DNA of 60,000 nt from NCBI RefSeq assembly GCF_963921235.1, contig NC_086108.1, positions 70,062,001 to 70,122,000 of the forward strand, written 5' to 3'. The notes beneath the pieces were generated by a model. The model saw only the letters and a program-made list of their open reading frames with translations. It was not told where the DNA came from and ran no database searches. Position 1 is the first letter of the stretch, and every line of letters starts with the position of its first letter. Position numbers and translations under genes: made by a program. Positions 1 through 56,505 of the stretch are shown piece by piece. This DNA comes from Mobula hypostoma. Taxonomy: Eukaryota.

Positions 1-1247
1 TTATGTGACCGAGGGGAGGAGGAGTGGAAAGAACAAAGGGATTATCAGTGAGAGGGTAAAATCTAAGATTACCCAGGTGGCTGTAATGCTGTTGGTGTCA
101 TCTAAGAGGGGGAGCTGAAAGAATGCAACAGATCACTGAGGGGGAAGAAAAGTGAATTAGCCACATCTAACACAAACAGGAACAGATGGTTTAAGAAAAT
201 TGTTCCATTCAATACTGAGCCATGAAGCGTGCAAATACCGAAACAAAAGACGAGATAGTACCCTTCATCTACTTTGATCTTTGTCAGGAGAGTGTAGGAA
301 CCAAAAGACAGAGAAGACCACGTGGGGGAGGTTGGAAGAAATAAAGTGATGCTCAGAGTTAACAATTCATTGAGCTGCTTGGAAATGCTGGTTCAATGTA
401 CCAGCTCACCAATCGGATGCATACAAGGCCACAAAATAGCTGGGATCTCACTACAAGGACAAAGGTGGGATGTTTATTCCAGCCACCACCCCCACAATGT
501 CAATCAATATAAACAAATCGAGTCTATTGTGTGAGGAGTCACAGGTGCATATCTATCTTTTAATCATGAAGCAGGAAGTGCAACCATCCTGTAATCAGCC
601 CTCTGCTCTGCAATTTGAAAAGCAAACAGAAAACTGATTGATTCATATGAGTGCTCTGTCAAGATTTTTAAAAAAACTGGGAGCAGGTGGATATTTAAGA
701 AATAGGATAATTTAAAACATTGCTATTAAAATGTACATTTTCTTCAAGAAAGTTATTTCATTCTGGAGTATAGTTTTCCTGTGATTTTTTTTGGTTTATG
801 GATTTAAACCAGAAATTGACTTGGCTCCTTTTCATTTGGATGATCAATAATGTTATACTTTCCATGGAGCCATTTGTTTGCTGGTATCAAAGACAAAAAA
901 TGAAAATGAACATTTTTCATTGTATAAACTGGATTCATAATTTAATACCTCTCTCTTGGATTTGAAACATTAAAACTGTTTATCTTTTTTTCATTCTCAG
1001 CTTCCTCATACAGTACAAAACCTTTAATAACAAACCTTTTGCTTGGTCCTTACTTCCATGTCCTTCACCCTGTCCTTATTAATTACAGCAAAATAAATCC
1101 AACAAAACTTCAAGAACAGCATCTTCTCTTCTGGCAAAGCATGTAACAATGCTTAGAACTGATCACTATTTCAGTATTAAATATATAATATATACGATTT
1201 GATTGATACAGCAAAGAAACAGATTCAAAAAAATAACACTTATAATG

Positions 1248-2100
1248 TAAACACGAGGAAATCTGCAGATGCTGGAATTTCGAGCAAGACACATAAAAAT
1301 TACTGGTGAACACAGCAGGCCAGGCAGCATCTATTGGAAGAAGTAGAGTTGACGTTTCAGGCCGAGACCCTTCGTCAGGACGAACTGAAAGAAGAGATAG
1401 TAAGAGATTTGAAAGTGGAAGGGGGAGGGGGAGGAGGAGATCCGAAATGATAGAAGACGACAGGAGGGGGAAGGGATGGAGCTAAGAGCTGGACAGTTGA
1501 TTGGCAAAAGGGATATGAGAGGATCATGGGACGAACGAGAGGCCGAGGGTGAAAGAAAGGGGGAGGAGGGAAACCCAGAGGATGGGCAAGGAGTATAGCG
1601 AGAGGGACACAGGGAGAAAAAGGAGAGAGAAAAAAATATAATAATAATAAAAGATAAATAAATAACGGATGGGGTAGGAAGGGGAGGTGGGGCATTAATG
1701 GAAGTTAGAGAAGTCAGTGTTCATGCCGTCAGGTTGGAGGCTACCCAGACGGAATATAAGGTGTTGTTCCTCCAACCTGAGTGTAGCTTCATCTTTACAG
1801 TAGAGGAGGCCGTGGATAGACATGTCAGAGTGGGAATGGGACGTGGAATTAAAATGTGTGGCTACTGGGAGATCCTGCTTTCTCTGGCGGACAGAGCGTA
1901 GGTGTTCAGCAAAACGATCTCCCAGCTTGTGTCGGGTCTTGCCAATATATAGAAGGCCGCACCGGGAGCACCGGATGCAGTATATCACCCCAGCCGACTC
2001 ACAGGTGAAGTGTCGCCTCACCTGGAAGGACTGTCTGGGGCCCTGAATGGTGGTGAGGGAGGAAGTGTAAGGGCATGTGTAGCACTTGTTCGGCTTACTA
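1248..2100 (-). mobile_element. Penelope-like element, 5'-truncated (GIY-YIG C-terminus + pseudo-LTR with hammerhead core)
   Basis: ORF 1695..2021(-) GVIYCIRCSRCGLLYIGKT...RFAEHL is a GIY-YIG endonuclease; the pLTR carries CTGACGA..GAAACGTC on the minus strand; candidate TSD ttataatgta at 1240-1249 and 2101-2110. Confidence 0.9.
1695..2021 (-). pseudogene. GIY-YIG endonuclease domain fragment of a PLE ORF
   Basis: VIY..YIG motif, conserved R and EH, and C-terminal LEEQHLIFRLGSLQPDGMN. Confidence 0.85.
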
Positions 2101-3964
2101 TTATAATGTATTTACCAAACTCTTGGTCATGTGCTGATATTTTCCTTCGTGGGTACCAACCATAAGACACAGGGACAAAATTAGGCAATGTGGCCCATCG
2201 GGTCTGCTCTGCCATTTCATCATGGCTGATCCAACTTTCCCCTCAAATCCAATCTCCTGCCTTCTCCCCATATCTCTTCATGACCTGACCAATCAAGAAT
2301 CTATCAACCTCTGCCTTAAATATACATAAAGACTTGGTCTCCACAGCTGTCTGTGACAAAGAATTCCACAGATTCATCACTCTCTGGCTAAAGAAATTTT
2401 TCCTCATCTCTGTTGTAAAAGGATGCCTCTCTATTCTGAGGCTGTGTCCTCTGGTCTTAGACTCTCCCACCATAGGAAACATCCTCTCCACGTCCACTCT
2501 ATCAAGGCCTTTCATCATTCGATAGGTTTCAGTAAGGCCACCCGTCATTCTTCTGAATTCAAGTGAATACAGGCCCAGAGCCATCTAGCACTCTTCATTT
2601 GTCAACCCATTCAGTCCTGGAATCATTTTTGTGAGTCTCCTTTGAATCCTCTCCTGTTTCAGCACATCCTTTCTGAAACTGTACAAGGACTCCCAAATCC
2701 TTCTGCATCTCACTTTTTTGTATTTTCATTCCATTTAGAAAATAGTCAATCCTTTAATTTCTTCTACCAAAGTGCATGACCATGCACGTCCCAATACTAT
2801 TCCATCTGTTATTTCTTTGCCCATTTTCCTAATCTAAGTCCTTCTGCAGCCTCTCTACTTCCTCAAAACTACCTGCTCCTCCACCAATCATCATATTACC
2901 TGCAAACTTTGCAACAAAGCCATCAATTCCATCATCCAAATCATTAACATAAAAGTAAAAATAATCAGTCTCAATACAGACCCCTGTGGAACACACTAGT
3001 CACCGGCAGCCAGCCAGAAAAGGTTTCTATTATTCCCACTCTTTGCCTCCTGCCAATCAGCCACTGCTTTATCCATGCTAGAATCTTTCCTGTAATACCA
3101 TGGGCTCGTAGCTTGTTAAGCAGCCTCATGTGTGACACCTTGTCAAAGGCCTTCTGAAAATCCAAGTACATAACATCAACCAATTCTCCTTTGTCTTTCG
3201 TACTTGTTATTTCTTCAAAGAATTCCAACAGATTTGTCAGGCAAGATTTTTCCTCGAGGAAACTATGCTGACTACAGCCTATTTTATCATGTGCCTTCAA
3301 ATACCCTGAGATCTCATCCCTAATAATCAACTTCAACATCTTCCCAACCACTGAGGTCAGACTAACTGATCTAAAGTTTCCTTTCTTCTGCCTCTTTCTC
3401 TTCTTGAACACTGGAATGACATTTGCAATTGTCCAGTCTTCCAGAACCATTCCAGAATCCAATGATTCTTGAAAGATCATTACTAATGCCTCCACAATCT
3501 CTTCAGCCACCTCTTTCAGAACCCTACGGTGTACACCATCTGATCCAAATGACCTGTCTATCTTCAGACCTTTCAGTTTCCCAAGAACCTTCTCCCTAAT
3601 AATGGTACCCACACACAGTTCATGACCCCTGACACCTGGAACTTCCACCATACTTCTAGTGTCTTCCACAGTGAAGACTGCTGCAAAACACTTATTCAGT
3701 TCATCCATCATTTTGTTGTCCCCCATTACAACCACTCCAGCATCATTTTTCAGCAGTGCAATATCCACTCTTGCCTCTCTTTTACACTTTATGTACCTGA
3801 AGAAACTTTTGGTATCCTCTTTATTGGCTCGCTTCCTTTCGTATTCCACCTTTACCTTCTCAATTACTTTTTTATTTGACTTCTGTTGGTATTTGAAAGC
3901 TTCCCAATCCTCCAACTTCCCACTAATTTTTGCTTTATTATATGCCCACTGTTTGGATTTTATG

Positions 3965-4199
3965 CAACATACATCAAAGTTGCTGGTGAACGCAGCAGGC
4001 CAAGCAGCATCTATAGGAAGAGGCGCAGTCGACGTTTCAGGCCGAGACCCTTCGTCAGGACACAGTCCTGACGAAGGGTCTCGGCCTGAAACGTCGACTG
4101 CGCCTCTTCCTATAGATGCTGCTTGGCCTGCTGCGTTCACCAGCAACTTTGATGTATGTTGCTTGAATTTCCAGCATCTGCAGAATTCCTGTTGTTTAC
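3965..4199. mobile_element. Palindromic PLE pseudo-LTR insertion with hammerhead cores
   Basis: Perfect 98-bp inverted arms 3964-4061 and 4065-4162, loop aca, 37-nt tail, TSD gtttggattttatg at 3951-3964 and 4200-4213. Confidence 0.92.
4063..4100 (+). ncRNA. Minimal type I hammerhead ribozyme motif (PLE-type)
   Basis: cagtc-CTGACGA-agggtctcggcct-GAAA-cgtc-gactg: stem I cagtc/gactg, stem II agg/cct, palindromic ACGT stem III, predicted cleavage after GTC 4095. Confidence 0.85.
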
Positions 4200-5138
4200 G
4201 TTTGGATTTTATGTTGGTTTTGACTTCTCTTGCTAGCCACAGTTGTGTCATTTTCCCTTTAGAATACTTCTTCCACTTTGGGATGTAAATATCCTGTGCC
4301 TTCCGAATTGCTTCCAGAAATTTCAGCCACTGCTGCCAGTGTTTCCTCCCCAATCAGTTCTGGTGAACTCCTCTCTCATACCTCTGTAATTCCCTTTACT
4401 CCATTGTAATACCGATACATCTGACTTTAGCTTCTTCTTCTCAAATTTCAGGATGAATTTGGTCATATTATGGTCACTTTCTCCTTAGTGTTCTTTTACC
4501 TTAAGCTCTCTAATCAATTCTGGTTCACTGCACAATACCCAACATTGTAGGAATTCCCGCTCTTGGAATCCAGCACCAACTTGATTTTCCCAATCCACCT
4601 GCATATTAAAGTCCCTCATGACCATTTTAATATTCCCCTTTTGGCATACATTTTCCATCTCCCGTTGTAATTTGTAGGCCACATCCTTACCACTGTTTGG
4701 GGGTCTGTATAAAACTCCAAAAGGGGTCTTTTTACCCTTGCAGTTCCTTAGTTCAATGCACAATGATTCAACACCTTCCGACCCTTATGTCACTTCTTTT
4801 TGATGATTTGATTTCATTTTTTACCAACAGAACAATGCCACCCTCTCTGTCTTCCTGCCTGTCCTTTCGATACAATGTGTATCCTTGGACATTAAGCTCA
4901 GAGCTATAATCTTCTTTCAGCCATGATTCAGTGATGCCTACAACATCATACCTGCCAATTTGCAACTGTGCTGTAAGTTCATCCACCTTATTCTGCATAC
5001 TACGCATAATCAAATACAACACTTTCAGTCCTGTATTCACCCTTTTCGATTTTTTCCACCTTTTACATTGCAACTCATCCTATTGACTGCAATGTAGCCC
5101 TATCAACAGCCTCTCCTCACTACACATTGCCTCTATTC

Positions 5139-5494
5139 CTTCCCCCTCCCTTCCCCTATCCCAGTTTCACTCTGCCTCCTCCCCGAGCTGCCTATCACCT
5201 CCCTCGTGGTTCTGCCTCCTTCTACTACCTATTGTGCTTTCTCCTATTCCTTCTTCATCTTTCCTGCCTATCACCTGCCTGCTTCCCCTCCCCCACCCCT
5301 TGATCTTTCCCTTACTGGTTTTTCACCTGGAACCTACCAGCCTTCTCCTTCCTACCCTCCCCCCACCTTCTTTATAGGGCCTCTGCCCCTTCCCTATTCA
5401 GTCCTGACAAAGGGTCTCAGCCTGAAATGTTGACTGATCATTTCCACGGATACTGCCCGACCTGCTGAGTTCCTCTGGCGTGTTGTGAGTGTTG
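5139..5494 (+). mobile_element. PLE 3' region/pLTR fragment with degenerate hammerhead
   Basis: Pyrimidine-rich tract followed by cagtcctgacaaagggtctcagcctgaaatgttgactg; possible TSD ctattc. Confidence 0.75.
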
Positions 5495-28412: not shown

Positions 28413-31101
28413 CCATAAGGCATAGGAGCAGAATTAGGCCATCTGGCCCATCGAGTCTGCTCCGCCATTCAATCATGGCTGATCCTTTTTTTTCTCTCCT
28501 CCTCAACCCCAGTTCCCGGCCTTCTCCCCGTAACCTTTGATGCCATGTCCAATCAAGAACCTATCAATCTCTGCCTTAAATACACCCTATGAACTGGCCT
28601 CCACAGCTGCACGTGGCAACAAATTCCACAAATTCACCACCCTTTGGCTAAAGAAACTTCTCTGCATCTCTGTTTTGAGAGGCGCCTCTCTATCCTGAGG
28701 CTGTGCCCTCTTGTCCTAGACTCTCCTACCATGGGAAACATCCTTTCCACATCTACTCTGTCTAGGCTTTTCAACATTCGAAAGGTTTCAATGACAACCC
28801 CCCTCATCCTTCTGAATTCCATCAAGTACAGACCCAGAGCCATCAAAAGCTCCTCGTATGATAACCCTTTCATTCCTGGAATCATCCTTGTGTATCTCCT
28901 CTGGACCCTCTCCAATGCCAGCACGTCTTTTCTAAGATGAGGAGCCCCAAACTGTTCACGATATTCAAGGTGAGGCCTCACCAGTGCCTTATAAAGCCTC
29001 AGCAATACATCCTTAGTCTTGTACGAGGGGTGATTGATAAATTTGTGGCCTAAGGTAGAAGGAGTCAATTTCAGAAAACCTAGCACATTTATTTTTCCTA
29101 CATTTACACACTTAGACCAGCGGTTGTGGAGCATATGGATCCCTTCTTTGTAGAGGTCGGCATCTTGGACCTCCAGAAAGTGGTCCACAGCAGGGGTGAT
29201 TGATAAGTTTGTGGCCTAATGTAGGAGATGAGTTATTAACTTCAAACTTTCTGCATTTTCACTTAAAGAGTTGAACTGTACGTGCATGTAATGAGAGCTG
29301 TATAACTGATCTCCTTCTGCCGTAGGCCACAAACTTATCAATTACCCCTGCTGTAGACCACTTCTACAAAGAAGGGATCCGTATGCTCCACAACAGCTGG
29401 ACTAAGTGTGTACATGTAGGAGGGGACTATGTTGAAAAATAAATGTGCTAGGTTTTCTAAAATTGACTCCTACCTTAGGCCACAAACCTATCAATCACCC
29501 CTTGTATTCTAGACCTCTTCCAATGAATGCTAACATGGCATTTGCCTTCCTCATCACCAACACAACCTGCAAGTTAACCTTTAGGGTGTTCTGTACAAGG
29601 ACTCCCAAGTTCCTTTGCATCTCAGATTCCTGGATTTTCTCCCCATTTAGAAAATAGTCCGCTCATTTATTTCTACTACCAAGGTGCATGATCATGCATT
29701 TTCCAACATTGTATTTCATTTGCCACTTTCTTGTCCATTCTCCTAATCTGTCTAAATCCTTCTGCATCCTACTTGTTTCCTCAACACTATTTGCCCCTCC
29801 ACGTATCTTCATATCATCTGCCAACGTGGCAACAAAGCATCTATTCCATCATCTAAATCATAAGACCATAAGATATAGGAGCAGAAGTAGGCCATTCAGC
29901 CCATCGAGTCTTCTCTGCCATTCAATCATGGCCAATCCAATTCATCCAGTCATCTGCACCCCCCTGCCTTCTCCCCATACCCTTTGATGCCCTGGCTAAT
30001 CAAGAACCGGTCTATCTCTGCCTTAAATGTACCCAATGACTTGACCTCCACAGCCGCTCGTGGCAACAAATTCCACAGATTTACCACCCTCTGACTAAAG
30101 TAATTTCTCCACATCCCTGTTCTAAATGGATGTCCTTCAATCTTGAAGTTGTGCCCTCTTGTCTTAGACTCCCCTATCATGGGAATTAATTTTGCCAGAT
30201 CTAATTTGTTCAGACCTTTTAACATTCGGAATGTTTCTATGAGATCCCCCCCTCATTCTCCTGAACTACAGGGAATACAGCCCAAGAATTGCCAGACATT
30301 CCTCATATGGTAACCCTTTCATTCTTGGAATCATTCTCGTGAATCTTCTCTGAACTCTCTCCAATGTCAGTATATCCTTTCTAAAATAAGGAGCCCAAAA
30401 CTGCACAAATGTGGAACACCATGAGTCACTAGCAGCCAACCAGAAAAGGATCCTTTTATTCCCACTTGCTGCCTCCTCCCAATCAGCCAATGCTCTAGCC
30501 ACGTTAGTAACTTTCCTATAATACCATGGGCTCATAACTTGGTAAGCAACCTCATGTGTGCCACCTTGTCAAAGGCCTTCTGAAAATCCAAATATACAAC
30601 ATCCACTGTATCCCCTTTACCTATCCTACGTGTAATTTCCTCAAAGAATTCCAACAGGTTCATCAGGCAGGATTTTCCCTGAAGGAAACCATGCTGACTT
30701 TGTACTATCTTGTCCTGTGTCACCAAGTACTCCATAACCTCATCCTGAACAATTGACTCCAACATTTTCCCAACCTCTGAGGTCAGGCTAACTGGTCTGT
30801 AATTTCCTTTTTGCTGTCTTCCTCTTTTCTTAAAAAGTGGAGTAACATTTGCAATTTTCCAGTCCTCTGGCACCATGCCAGAGTCCAATGATTTTTGAAA
30901 GATCATTTCTAATGCCACCACAATCTCTAACACTACCTCTTTCAGAACCCTAGGGTGCAGTTCCTCTGGTCCAGGTGACTTATGTATCTTTTTCAGCTTT
31001 TTGAGCATCTTCTCTCTTGTAACAGTAACTGCACCCACTTCTCTTCCTTCACACACTACAACATCAGGCATACTGCTAGTGTCTTCCACAGTAAAGACTG
31101 T
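28413..31101 (-). mobile_element. CR1 ORF2 3' half inserted in CR1 ORF1, itself carrying a MITE and a second CR1 3' end
   Basis: ORFs 30532-31308 ([11 protein letters not shown]) and 28634-29188; second CR1 tail begins at 29860 and runs to ~30408. Confidence 0.9.
29024..29504. mobile_element. Mariner-derived palindromic MITE with four TIR copies
   Basis: TA TSD at 29022-23 and 29505-06; TIR cgaggggtgattgataa.tttgtggccta; both arms encode the mariner C-terminus (FYKEGIRMLHNSWTKCVHVGGDYVEK*). Confidence 0.92.
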
Positions 31102-36921: not shown

Positions 36922-37150
36922 GCAACACACACAAAATGCTGGTGGAACGCAATAGGCCAGGCAGCATCTATAGGAAGAAGTACAGTCGACGTTTCTGGCC
37001 GAGACCCTTCGTCAGGACCCTTTGAAGGGTCATGGCCCGAAACATCGACTGTACTTCTTCCTATAGATGCTGCCTGGCCTGCTGCGTTCCACCAGCATTT
37101 TGTGTGTGTTGCTTGAACTTCCAGCATCTGCAGATTTCCTCGTGTTTGCG
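36922..37150. mobile_element. Second palindromic PLE pseudo-LTR insertion with hammerhead core
   Basis: 89-bp imperfect arms 36922-37010 and 37024-37112, 13-nt spacer, 38-nt tail, TSD ttccataacttag at 36909-36921 and 37151-37163. Confidence 0.92.
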
Positions 37151-55224: not shown

Positions 55225-56505
55225 GGAGATCTGATTGATTGCGGACTTCAGGAAGAGGAAGTCAGGAGAACATACTCCAATCAGCAGTGGAAAGGATGAG
55301 CAGCTACAAGCTTGGAGGATCTATCCTGGCTCCAGTACACCGATACAGTCATGAAGAAGGTATGCCAGTGGTACTTCATTAGGATTTTGGGGAAATTTGG
55401 TATGTTACTAAGGACTCTAAAATATTTCTACAGATGTACAGTGGAGAGCATTCTGAGTGGTTTCAACACCACCTGTTATGGAGGCACCAGTGTGCAGAAT
55501 TGAAAGAGCCTGCAAAGGGATCCAGACTCCGCCCCCTGCATTGCTGGCATAGGCCTCCCCACCACTGAGGACATCTTCATTGCTGGAATAGGCCTCCCCA
55601 CCACTGAGGACATCTTCATTGCTGGAATAGGCCTCCCCACCACTGAGGACATCTTCATTGCCGGAATAGGCCTCCCCACCACTGAGGACATCTTCATTGC
55701 CGGAATAGGCCTCCCCACCACTGAGGACATCTTCATTGCCGGAATAGGCCTCCCCACCACTGAGGACATCTTCATTGCTGGAATAGGCCTCCCCACCACT
55801 GAGGACATCTTCATTGCTGGAATAGGCCTCCCCACCACTGAGGACATCTTCATTGCTGGAATAGGCCTCCCCACCACTGAGGACATCTTCATTGCCGGCA
55901 TAGGCCTCCCCACCACTGAGGACATCTTCATTGCCGGAATAGGCCTCCCCACCACTGAGGACATCTTCATTGCCGGCACAGGCCTCCCCACCACTGAGGA
56001 CATCTTCATTGCCGGCACAGGCCTCGCCACCACTGAGGACATCTTCATTGCCGGCACAGGCCTCGCCACCACTGAGGACATCTTCATTGCCGGCATAGGC
56101 CTCGCCACCACTGAGGACATCTTCATTGCCGGCATAGGCCTCGCCACCACTGAGGACATCTTCATTGCCGGCATAGGCCTCCCCACCACTGAGGACATCT
56201 TCAAAAGGCGGTGCTTCAAGAAGGCAACATCCATTATTAAGAACCCTCACCATCCAGCACATGCCCACTTCTCATTACTACCATCAGGGAGGAGGTACCA
56301 GAGCCTGGAGACCCATCTCAATATTTCAGGAATAGCTTCTTCCCCTCCACCATCAGATTTCTGAATGGTCCATGAACACTACCTCACCATTCCTCTTCTA
56401 CTCTATTTGTTTTTGTAACTTACTGTCATTTATATGTCTTGCACTGTACTGCTGCCACAAACAACAAATTTCATGGCAGATGTCAGTGATAATAAACGTG
56501 ATGCT
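55225..56505 (+). mobile_element. Rex1/Babar 3' part hosting a minisatellite
   Basis: FYRCTVESILSG..CYG before the array; KKATSIIKNPHHPAHAHFSLLPSGRRY after it. Confidence 0.85.
55539..56201 (+). repeat. Minisatellite, 17 x 39 bp
   Basis: Unit cattgcYggMaYaggcctcSccaccactgaggacatctt, head-to-tail with no spacers. Confidence 0.97.

Follow-up and report, generated by a model that had tools for sequence, protein, structure and literature searches.

Background

It is known that Penelope-like elements (PLEs) leave complex insertions that combine an inverted, 5'-truncated copy, a tail of 30-40 bp on one side only and a TSD (PMC8557442; PMC3846280), the one-sided tail of 30-40 bp being also described in PMC11167929. 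The origin of their inverted pLTRs and tails has been called undefined (PMC8557442). In vitro, the protein of a green anole PLE, the Poseidon element PAc, cuts and extends both target strands and starts copying the RNA at two internal positions between which the tail lies; it is predicted to form a dimer and it uses uncleaved RNA (PMC11167929). The minimal hammerhead ribozymes of metazoan PLEs have a conserved core, a short helix I and a palindrome in place of helix III, and in Schistosoma such motifs occur as opposite-strand pairs 100-700 bp apart (PMC4209133). Non-LTR retrozymes are small, non-coding, derived from PLE pLTRs and equipped with a type-I hammerhead (bioRxiv 10.64898/2026.07.22.740005; PMC7229834); they are arranged as head-to-tail tandem repeats with one ribozyme per unit and give circular RNAs (bioRxiv 10.64898/2026.07.22.740005).

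In this work we analysed a 60,000-nucleotide stretch of Mobula hypostoma DNA, hereafter the window, in which an old LINE has received a fold-back insertion consisting of the ribozyme-bearing pLTR end of a very common PLE, present twice and head to head. The layout of this stub is already known for PLEs, and the copy itself is real, young and ordinary. With the PLE complex insertions, as far as the published accounts consulted describe them, it shares the head-to-head inverted pLTR, the palindrome at the junction, the one-sided tail, the TSD and parents in partial tandem; it differs from them in consisting of only two pLTRs with no body, which is the commonest form here (25 of 38 head-to-head pairs are shorter than 320 bp). 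The TSD is mostly 13-16 bp here, against 8-10 bp in the rotifer PLE examples of the available text. The stub is small and non-coding like the retrozymes, with the same type of hammerhead and the same pLTR derivation, whereas it forms a single head-to-head unit whose centre is nearly private to its locus. Membership of the non-LTR retrozymes was considered and rejected, there being neither head-to-tail tandem units nor a master copy.

Results and discussion

Anatomy of the fold-back insertion

The insert occupies positions 3965-4199 (235 bp) and lies between two identical plus-strand copies of a 14-bp TSD, at 3951-3964 and 4200-4213. Complementary arms at 3964-4061 and 4065-4162 pair perfectly over 98 nt around the loop ACA (4062-4064), and an unpaired tail of 37 nt follows at 4163-4199. 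G3964 is shared: it opens the 98-nt arm, closes the left TSD and fits pLTR position 98 (a 1-nt overlap); 97 bp lie wholly inside the insert. The original prediction of an insert of about 235 bp with an exact TSD, two perfect 98-bp arms, a 3-nt loop and a 37-nt tail was thus accurate throughout. The strand forming the hairpin has a fold energy of -223 kcal/mol (z = -32.6), and none of 200 shuffled sequences was as stable.

When the pLTR is numbered from the GTCC that opens helix I of the ribozyme, the tail-less arm (3965-4061, minus strand) corresponds to inverted positions 1-97 and the tailed arm (4065-4162, plus strand) to positions 1-98. The tailed arm has one difference from a natural parent copy (L129), at a site that is polymorphic in the family, and right arm and tail together have two differences in 139 positions. 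The loop at the head-to-head junction consists of the parent's A (position 0) and two bases absent from the parent, as judged against the same copy. The tail (plus strand) is the parent sequence that follows the pLTR towards the ORF, and the first four bases of the right TSD (plus strand) also fit the parent, which looks like microhomology at the priming site. Elsewhere in the window, ten further sequences are 73-89% alike to the 135-nt right part of the insert.

Hammerhead motifs

The sequence CTGACGA..GAAACGTC was found on both strands of the insert, in agreement with the predicted hammerhead core on each strand. The plus-strand motif (4063-4100) has a 5-bp helix I (CAGUC/GACUG), the core CUGACGA, a 3-bp helix II, GAAA and the palindromic ACGU, with a predicted cut between 4095 and 4096; all features of the minimal type I (core CUGANGA, GAAA..UH, helices I and II, palindromic helix III stub) are present, as seen in sequence and fold, and the architecture is as in PMC4209133. 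The minus-strand motif (4028-4061), also of the minimal type I, has a helix I of 3 bp only, which is absent from the fold of the isolated 48-mer. Conserved core, short helix I and the palindrome replacing helix III are shared with the motifs described in the consulted part of PMC4209133; in comparison with these, helix II is only 3 bp here, the facing motifs are closer, spanning about 70 bp inside a perfect hairpin, and such a hairpin cannot yield the same-strand dimer needed for cleavage. No Rfam hammerhead model matched the insert at E<=10, since helix III is lacking in this minimal type of motif.

When the fold of the plus-strand ribozyme was imposed, the energy was -142 kcal/mol against -212 kcal/mol for the hairpin, a penalty of about 70 kcal/mol. 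In a read-through transcript both ribozymes would therefore pair with their own complement and be inactive, a sequestration that had been anticipated. A microRNA precursor was also considered and rejected, since no Rfam family reached its gathering score; the best score was 51 bits (mir-3926) against a gathering score of 82, among generic hairpin matches.

Arms beginning at the predicted cut site numbered 60, compared with 56 beginning three bases before it and 14 three bases after it. Fourteen loci are perfect palindromes centred on GTCGAC, which is at once a self-complementary hexamer and the predicted cut site of the ribozyme, and they contribute 28 of those 56 arms; at these palindromes cleavage and microhomology are indistinguishable. 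Among the first 20 arms that start at the cut site, seven are single and four have a GAC microhomology at their joint. Any excess of arm ends at this site is therefore weak.

The parent element

An exact 35-mer of the pLTR has 17,149 matches in the 3.48-Gb genome. Longer copies extend upstream, where they hold a 3' region rich in pyrimidines and an ORF encoding RT and GIY-YIG domains. In a 3-kb copy (L083), whose ORF is frameshifted, the matches to RVT_1 (E 4.9e-5) and GIY-YIG (E 5e-4) both lie below the Pfam cut-offs, and the translation contains a DKG motif, a C..C/H/H pattern and the CX4CxxC linker CKRNKCYTC. Among 30 loci holding the 5' part of the ORF, 14 have a whole pLTR with its tail directly upstream, in most cases with a fragment of the 3' end ahead of it; this is the usual partial tandem, and the tail is therefore the parent sequence between pLTR and ORF. 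With its RT and GIY-YIG domains, pLTR partial tandems and one-tailed inverted copies, the parent is an abundant, endonuclease-positive PLE. The 35-mer matches and the 3-kb copy thereby bear out the proposal that the arms are Penelope pLTRs and a product of PLE machinery.

A CX2-5CxxC linker between RT and endonuclease marks the Neptune and Nematis PLEs (PMC8557442). The linker of the 3-kb copy fits this pattern, and that of the parent would accordingly be of the Neptune/Nematis type; Poseidon is described without it. The ORF of the parent seems to begin after the ribozyme, unlike that of Poseidon PAc as presented in the available text. No solved structure matching the parent protein was found.

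In L129 and other parent copies, pLTR positions -28 to 0 hold a branch-point-like sequence and a polypyrimidine-AG stretch that ends at the 5' edge of helix I. The arm ends pile up where this splice-acceptor-like stretch of the parent ends, and in Drosophila virilis the end of an intron has been mapped to the same spot ahead of the ribozyme (PMC4209133). We considered a spliced or otherwise fixed leader ahead of the ribozyme, as GT was frequent before GTCC in the 25 best look-alikes, a set selected by the query itself. This candidate was discarded: genome-wide, GT occurs in only 189 of the 2,865 arms that lack the parent's A ahead of the ribozyme, which is about chance, and no shared upstream exon was found ahead of the ribozyme in 60 loci (30 from each of two patterns).

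A continuum of head-to-head pairs

The DNA around the first 100 matches of the 35-mer on contig C1 was used for arm statistics; 125 arms were mapped, and three from a duplicated block were dropped. In this sample, which represents one end of one contig and requires the exact 35-mer, 76 of 122 arms form 38 head-to-head pairs of 171-3,623 bp. Exactly one tail is present in 36 of the 38 pairs and two tails in none; of the two pairs scored as tail-less, one (L107) has its tail behind a small duplication. The TSD measures 12-17 bp in 33 pairs, with a mode of 14. The 3' ends of the arms, single insertions included, cluster at pLTR positions 96-104 and 131-146, and tail-less arms end mostly at the former. 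The tail is missing in 27 of 46 single arms, some of which have a flank of only 1.5 kb, so that partners may have been missed.

When a slightly wider overlap was allowed, 39 pairs were counted. The tailed arm reaches further 5' in 12 of them and the tail-less arm in 11 (by more than 10 nt), both ending within 10 nt of each other in the remaining 16; in three pairs the tail-less arm is longer by 631-1,824 nt. The lengths of the two arms are coupled: pairs with two long arms number 10 of 39 where 3.1 would be expected, a value reached in none of 20,000 shuffles, and in four of these ten the two ends lie no more than 25 nt apart, with an expectation of 0.7 (p = 0.003). Independent truncation of the two arms is rejected by this coupling. 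Agreement of alleles between the arms was seen in 26 of 30 pairs (expected fraction 0.56) and in 27 of 28 (0.51). The 5' ends have a density of 0.019 per nt at -10 to +9, 0.012 at -30 to -11 and about 0.001 in the body, ends beyond +24 being invisible to this sample. Perfect arms are unexceptional, 12 of 32 pairs being free of mismatches over a 70-nt core. The stubs occupy the lower size range of a continuous series of head-to-head double insertions.

Two loci deserve separate mention. In a short fold-back (L243; G000 C1:31892500-31893100) the arms differ at three subfamily-diagnostic sites, as if two different RNA templates had entered one insertion. In another region (L092; G000 C1:13257200-13265000) a block of about 3,957 bp containing a single pLTR and a fold-back stub is tandemly duplicated.

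Formation of the stubs

We propose that the insertion is a 5'-truncated double pLTR insertion, probably made in one step, in which both nicked target strands primed cDNA on element RNA (probability about 0.6). The GIY-YIG endonuclease would nick the two strands about 14 bp apart, and one 3' end would prime at pLTR 131-146, where the tail has its far end, and the other at 96-104, its near end. Both cDNAs would be copied mostly from one uncleaved RNA, or from one source locus, and would come to a halt in the same region, close to the ribozyme's 5' edge (-30 to +10), probably at the RNA 5' end. Their ends would then be joined head to head, either by a brief stretch of microhomology or with some filler bases (here AC), and the TSD would be filled in by repair. 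Two-sided priming is supported because either arm can be the longer one and because L243 joins arms of two subfamilies; a shared template is supported because the arms of pairs agree in alleles and in length class. Both arms of the present copy extend past the predicted cut site (+31/+32), and their template would therefore have been uncleaved. The cluster of 5' ends probably marks the RNA 5' end; stalling of the reverse transcriptase fits it too.

In L1 twin priming, the second target strand primes a second cDNA, which leaves an inversion inside one TSD. The two L1 cDNAs cover different parts of the RNA, whereas those proposed here would cover the same part from two fixed internal starts. A literature search, with most subscription journals and supplements outside its range, yielded no account of twin priming in PLEs or of such stubs in cartilaginous fish. 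With Poseidon PAc (PMC11167929) the stubs would have in common a tail lying between two RT start sites, the cutting and extension of both strands, and a pLTR hammerhead that is dispensable for insertion. This in vitro support comes from a different clade, and the head-to-head product, which is genomic here, is not reported for PAc in the part of PMC11167929 consulted.

More tentatively, at somewhat less than even odds, the stubs as a population may record the course of PLE integration: a dimeric RNP would nick the target about 14 bp apart and prime two cDNAs at fixed internal sites of one uncleaved RNA, the stubs being strong-stop-like run-offs that mark the RNA 5' end just ahead of the ribozyme. 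If true, one model would account for the inverted pLTR, the one-sided tail and the TSD. The counts obtained here put such a model into testable form and link the in vitro results of PMC11167929 to genomic structure: pairs have one tail each, there are two start sites, the arm lengths are coupled, and the longer arm may be of either kind.

Self-priming, which has been proposed for head-to-head PLE palindromes on an antisense template (PMC3846280), is the strongest competitor, and we consider it unlikely as the overall explanation. A tail-primed cDNA would fold back at a short palindrome or microhomology, copy itself, stop one tail length short and then join the second target end. The shared alleles of the arms, the 16 of 39 pairs that end within 10 nt, the excess of symmetric long pairs (4 of 10 against 0.7) and the 14 perfect palindromes centred on GTCGAC all agree with it; the excess of arm symmetry is predicted by self-priming as well as by a shared template. 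The present copy, symmetric with a 3-nt loop, agrees with it too, and for this copy alone two-sided priming and fold-back self-copying of a cDNA are indistinguishable. Self-priming, however, can produce neither a pair whose longer arm is the tail-less one (11 of 39) nor arms of two subfamilies, and it leaves unexplained why single insertions without a tail end at the same 96-104 site. It may account for a subset of the stubs, the present copy included, with priming from both target strands as our preferred reading for the population.

Possible role of the hairpins

The stubs might also be by-products that have acquired a role, read-through dsRNA giving rise to small RNAs against the parent family or to its editing. 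The predicted hairpin is very stable and identical to the youngest subfamily, thousands of stub copies exist, and small-RNA profiles on inverted Penelope structures of rotifers have been noted (PMC3846280). We nevertheless regard such a role as improbable, as the present copy bears no sign of selection and the orthologous site in the related organism B is without the stub. The genome holds thousands of near-perfect hairpins against its most active PLE, and these could be a source of dsRNA and of trouble in assembly or repair. Taken alone, the locus is an ordinary, probably dead stub; of more weight is the population, whose statistics give a modest mechanistic lead.

The stub population

A pattern search found at least 3,223 short fold-backs in the genome. 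This abundance, together with the tail held by each stub (likely the region where reverse transcription starts), would suit the original prediction of a self-propagating, non-autonomous retrozyme-like family, copied by PLE machinery as a 235-bp unit. The comparison of centres across copies speaks strongly against it, and we consider it very improbable. Among the first 50 consecutive stubs on contig C1, nine of which overlap the first sample, 37 different centres were counted, and differing centres, named beforehand as grounds for rejecting such a family, were largely what was observed. One tail is present in 49 of these 50 stubs, and the TSD is at least 9 bp long in 40 and 13-16 bp in 32.

Two centres do recur, seven and six times in the 50 stubs. 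Each of them coincides with a short microhomology of the two arms and is found in both orientations with respect to the tail (4:3 and 3:3), and the arms around the seven-copy centre belong to at least four haplotypes; these recurrences reflect repeated independent formation and not descent from a master. The exact 31-nt centre of the present stub occurs twice genome-wide, and at the second place (L028) both the arm alleles and the left end are different. The 30 best look-alikes represent 25 distinct loci, each with its own TSD and all with a different junction or different arms. Tandem monomers are absent, and the ribozymes are buried in the hairpin. The present stub is likely a dead by-product, unable to spread alone.

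Age of the insertion

In run X5, from the related organism B, a 68-nt contig joins positions 3921-3950 directly to 4200-4236 and carries a single TSD copy, with 31 and 37 letters on its two sides. This is the empty site, and with its one TSD copy it identifies the stub as a true insertion. In run X3, from organism A, a 54-nt contig spans the filled right junction (4178-4230) without differences, with 31 letters on the flank side and 22 on the insert side, the latter below the bar of 31 letters, and from a sample that may be the source of the assembly. The left junction, matched to public contigs at a likeness of 90, was swamped by repeat contigs. The insertion is younger than the split from organism B, or polymorphic, in line with the very recent origin that had been predicted.

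That the assembly contains a chimeric fold-back read can practically be dismissed: perfect palindromes are a known long-read artefact, and the informative public contigs cover the right junction, but the locus has an exact TSD and a one-sided tail, the orthologous site is empty in organism B, and dozens of loci have the same anatomy with different TSDs.

At the outer arm end (3963-4000), contig cover is very deep in organisms A and B, less so in D and almost absent in C (runs X1, X5, X9 and X11), and over the LINE flank it is alike in all four. The arm pattern hints at a lineage-restricted burst of the PLE subfamily, contig depth being no measure of copy number.

Host LINE and other features of the window

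The LINE that took the insertion, which we take to be CR1-like from its motifs, lies on the minus strand. Its left part (2985-3950) matches RVT_1 (E 9e-11) and is 77% alike to another copy in the window; its right part (4214-5051, end approximate), delimited by self-matches of the window, carries the frame on across the insert. Insert and TSD together measure 249 bp, a multiple of three, and are free of stops, and the LINE frame stays open for 460 codons (2971-4353, minus strand). This is probably chance, the LINE being decayed. Non-repeat Pfam domains were absent from 24 long frames of the window, which gave repeat-type matches only, and from 134 out of 232 unmasked frames; no host exon was found among them.

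A second, older fold-back stub at 36922-37149, 83% alike to the first, has another centre and a 13-bp TSD of its own. An older single PLE copy of about 850 bp (1247-2100, minus strand) retains its tail and a GIY-YIG fragment, matched above the Pfam cut-off at 1695-2111. Further pLTR relics lie near 5401, 5848, 8592, 17334, 31748, 46719, 48077 and 52972. A tandem array with a period of about 78 bp (55536-56203) consists of units 93-97% alike; several of its frames are open for 250-290 codons, and these frames gave no Pfam match. An old inverted repeat of about 480 bp, with a self-identity of 72%, occupies positions 29022-29506.
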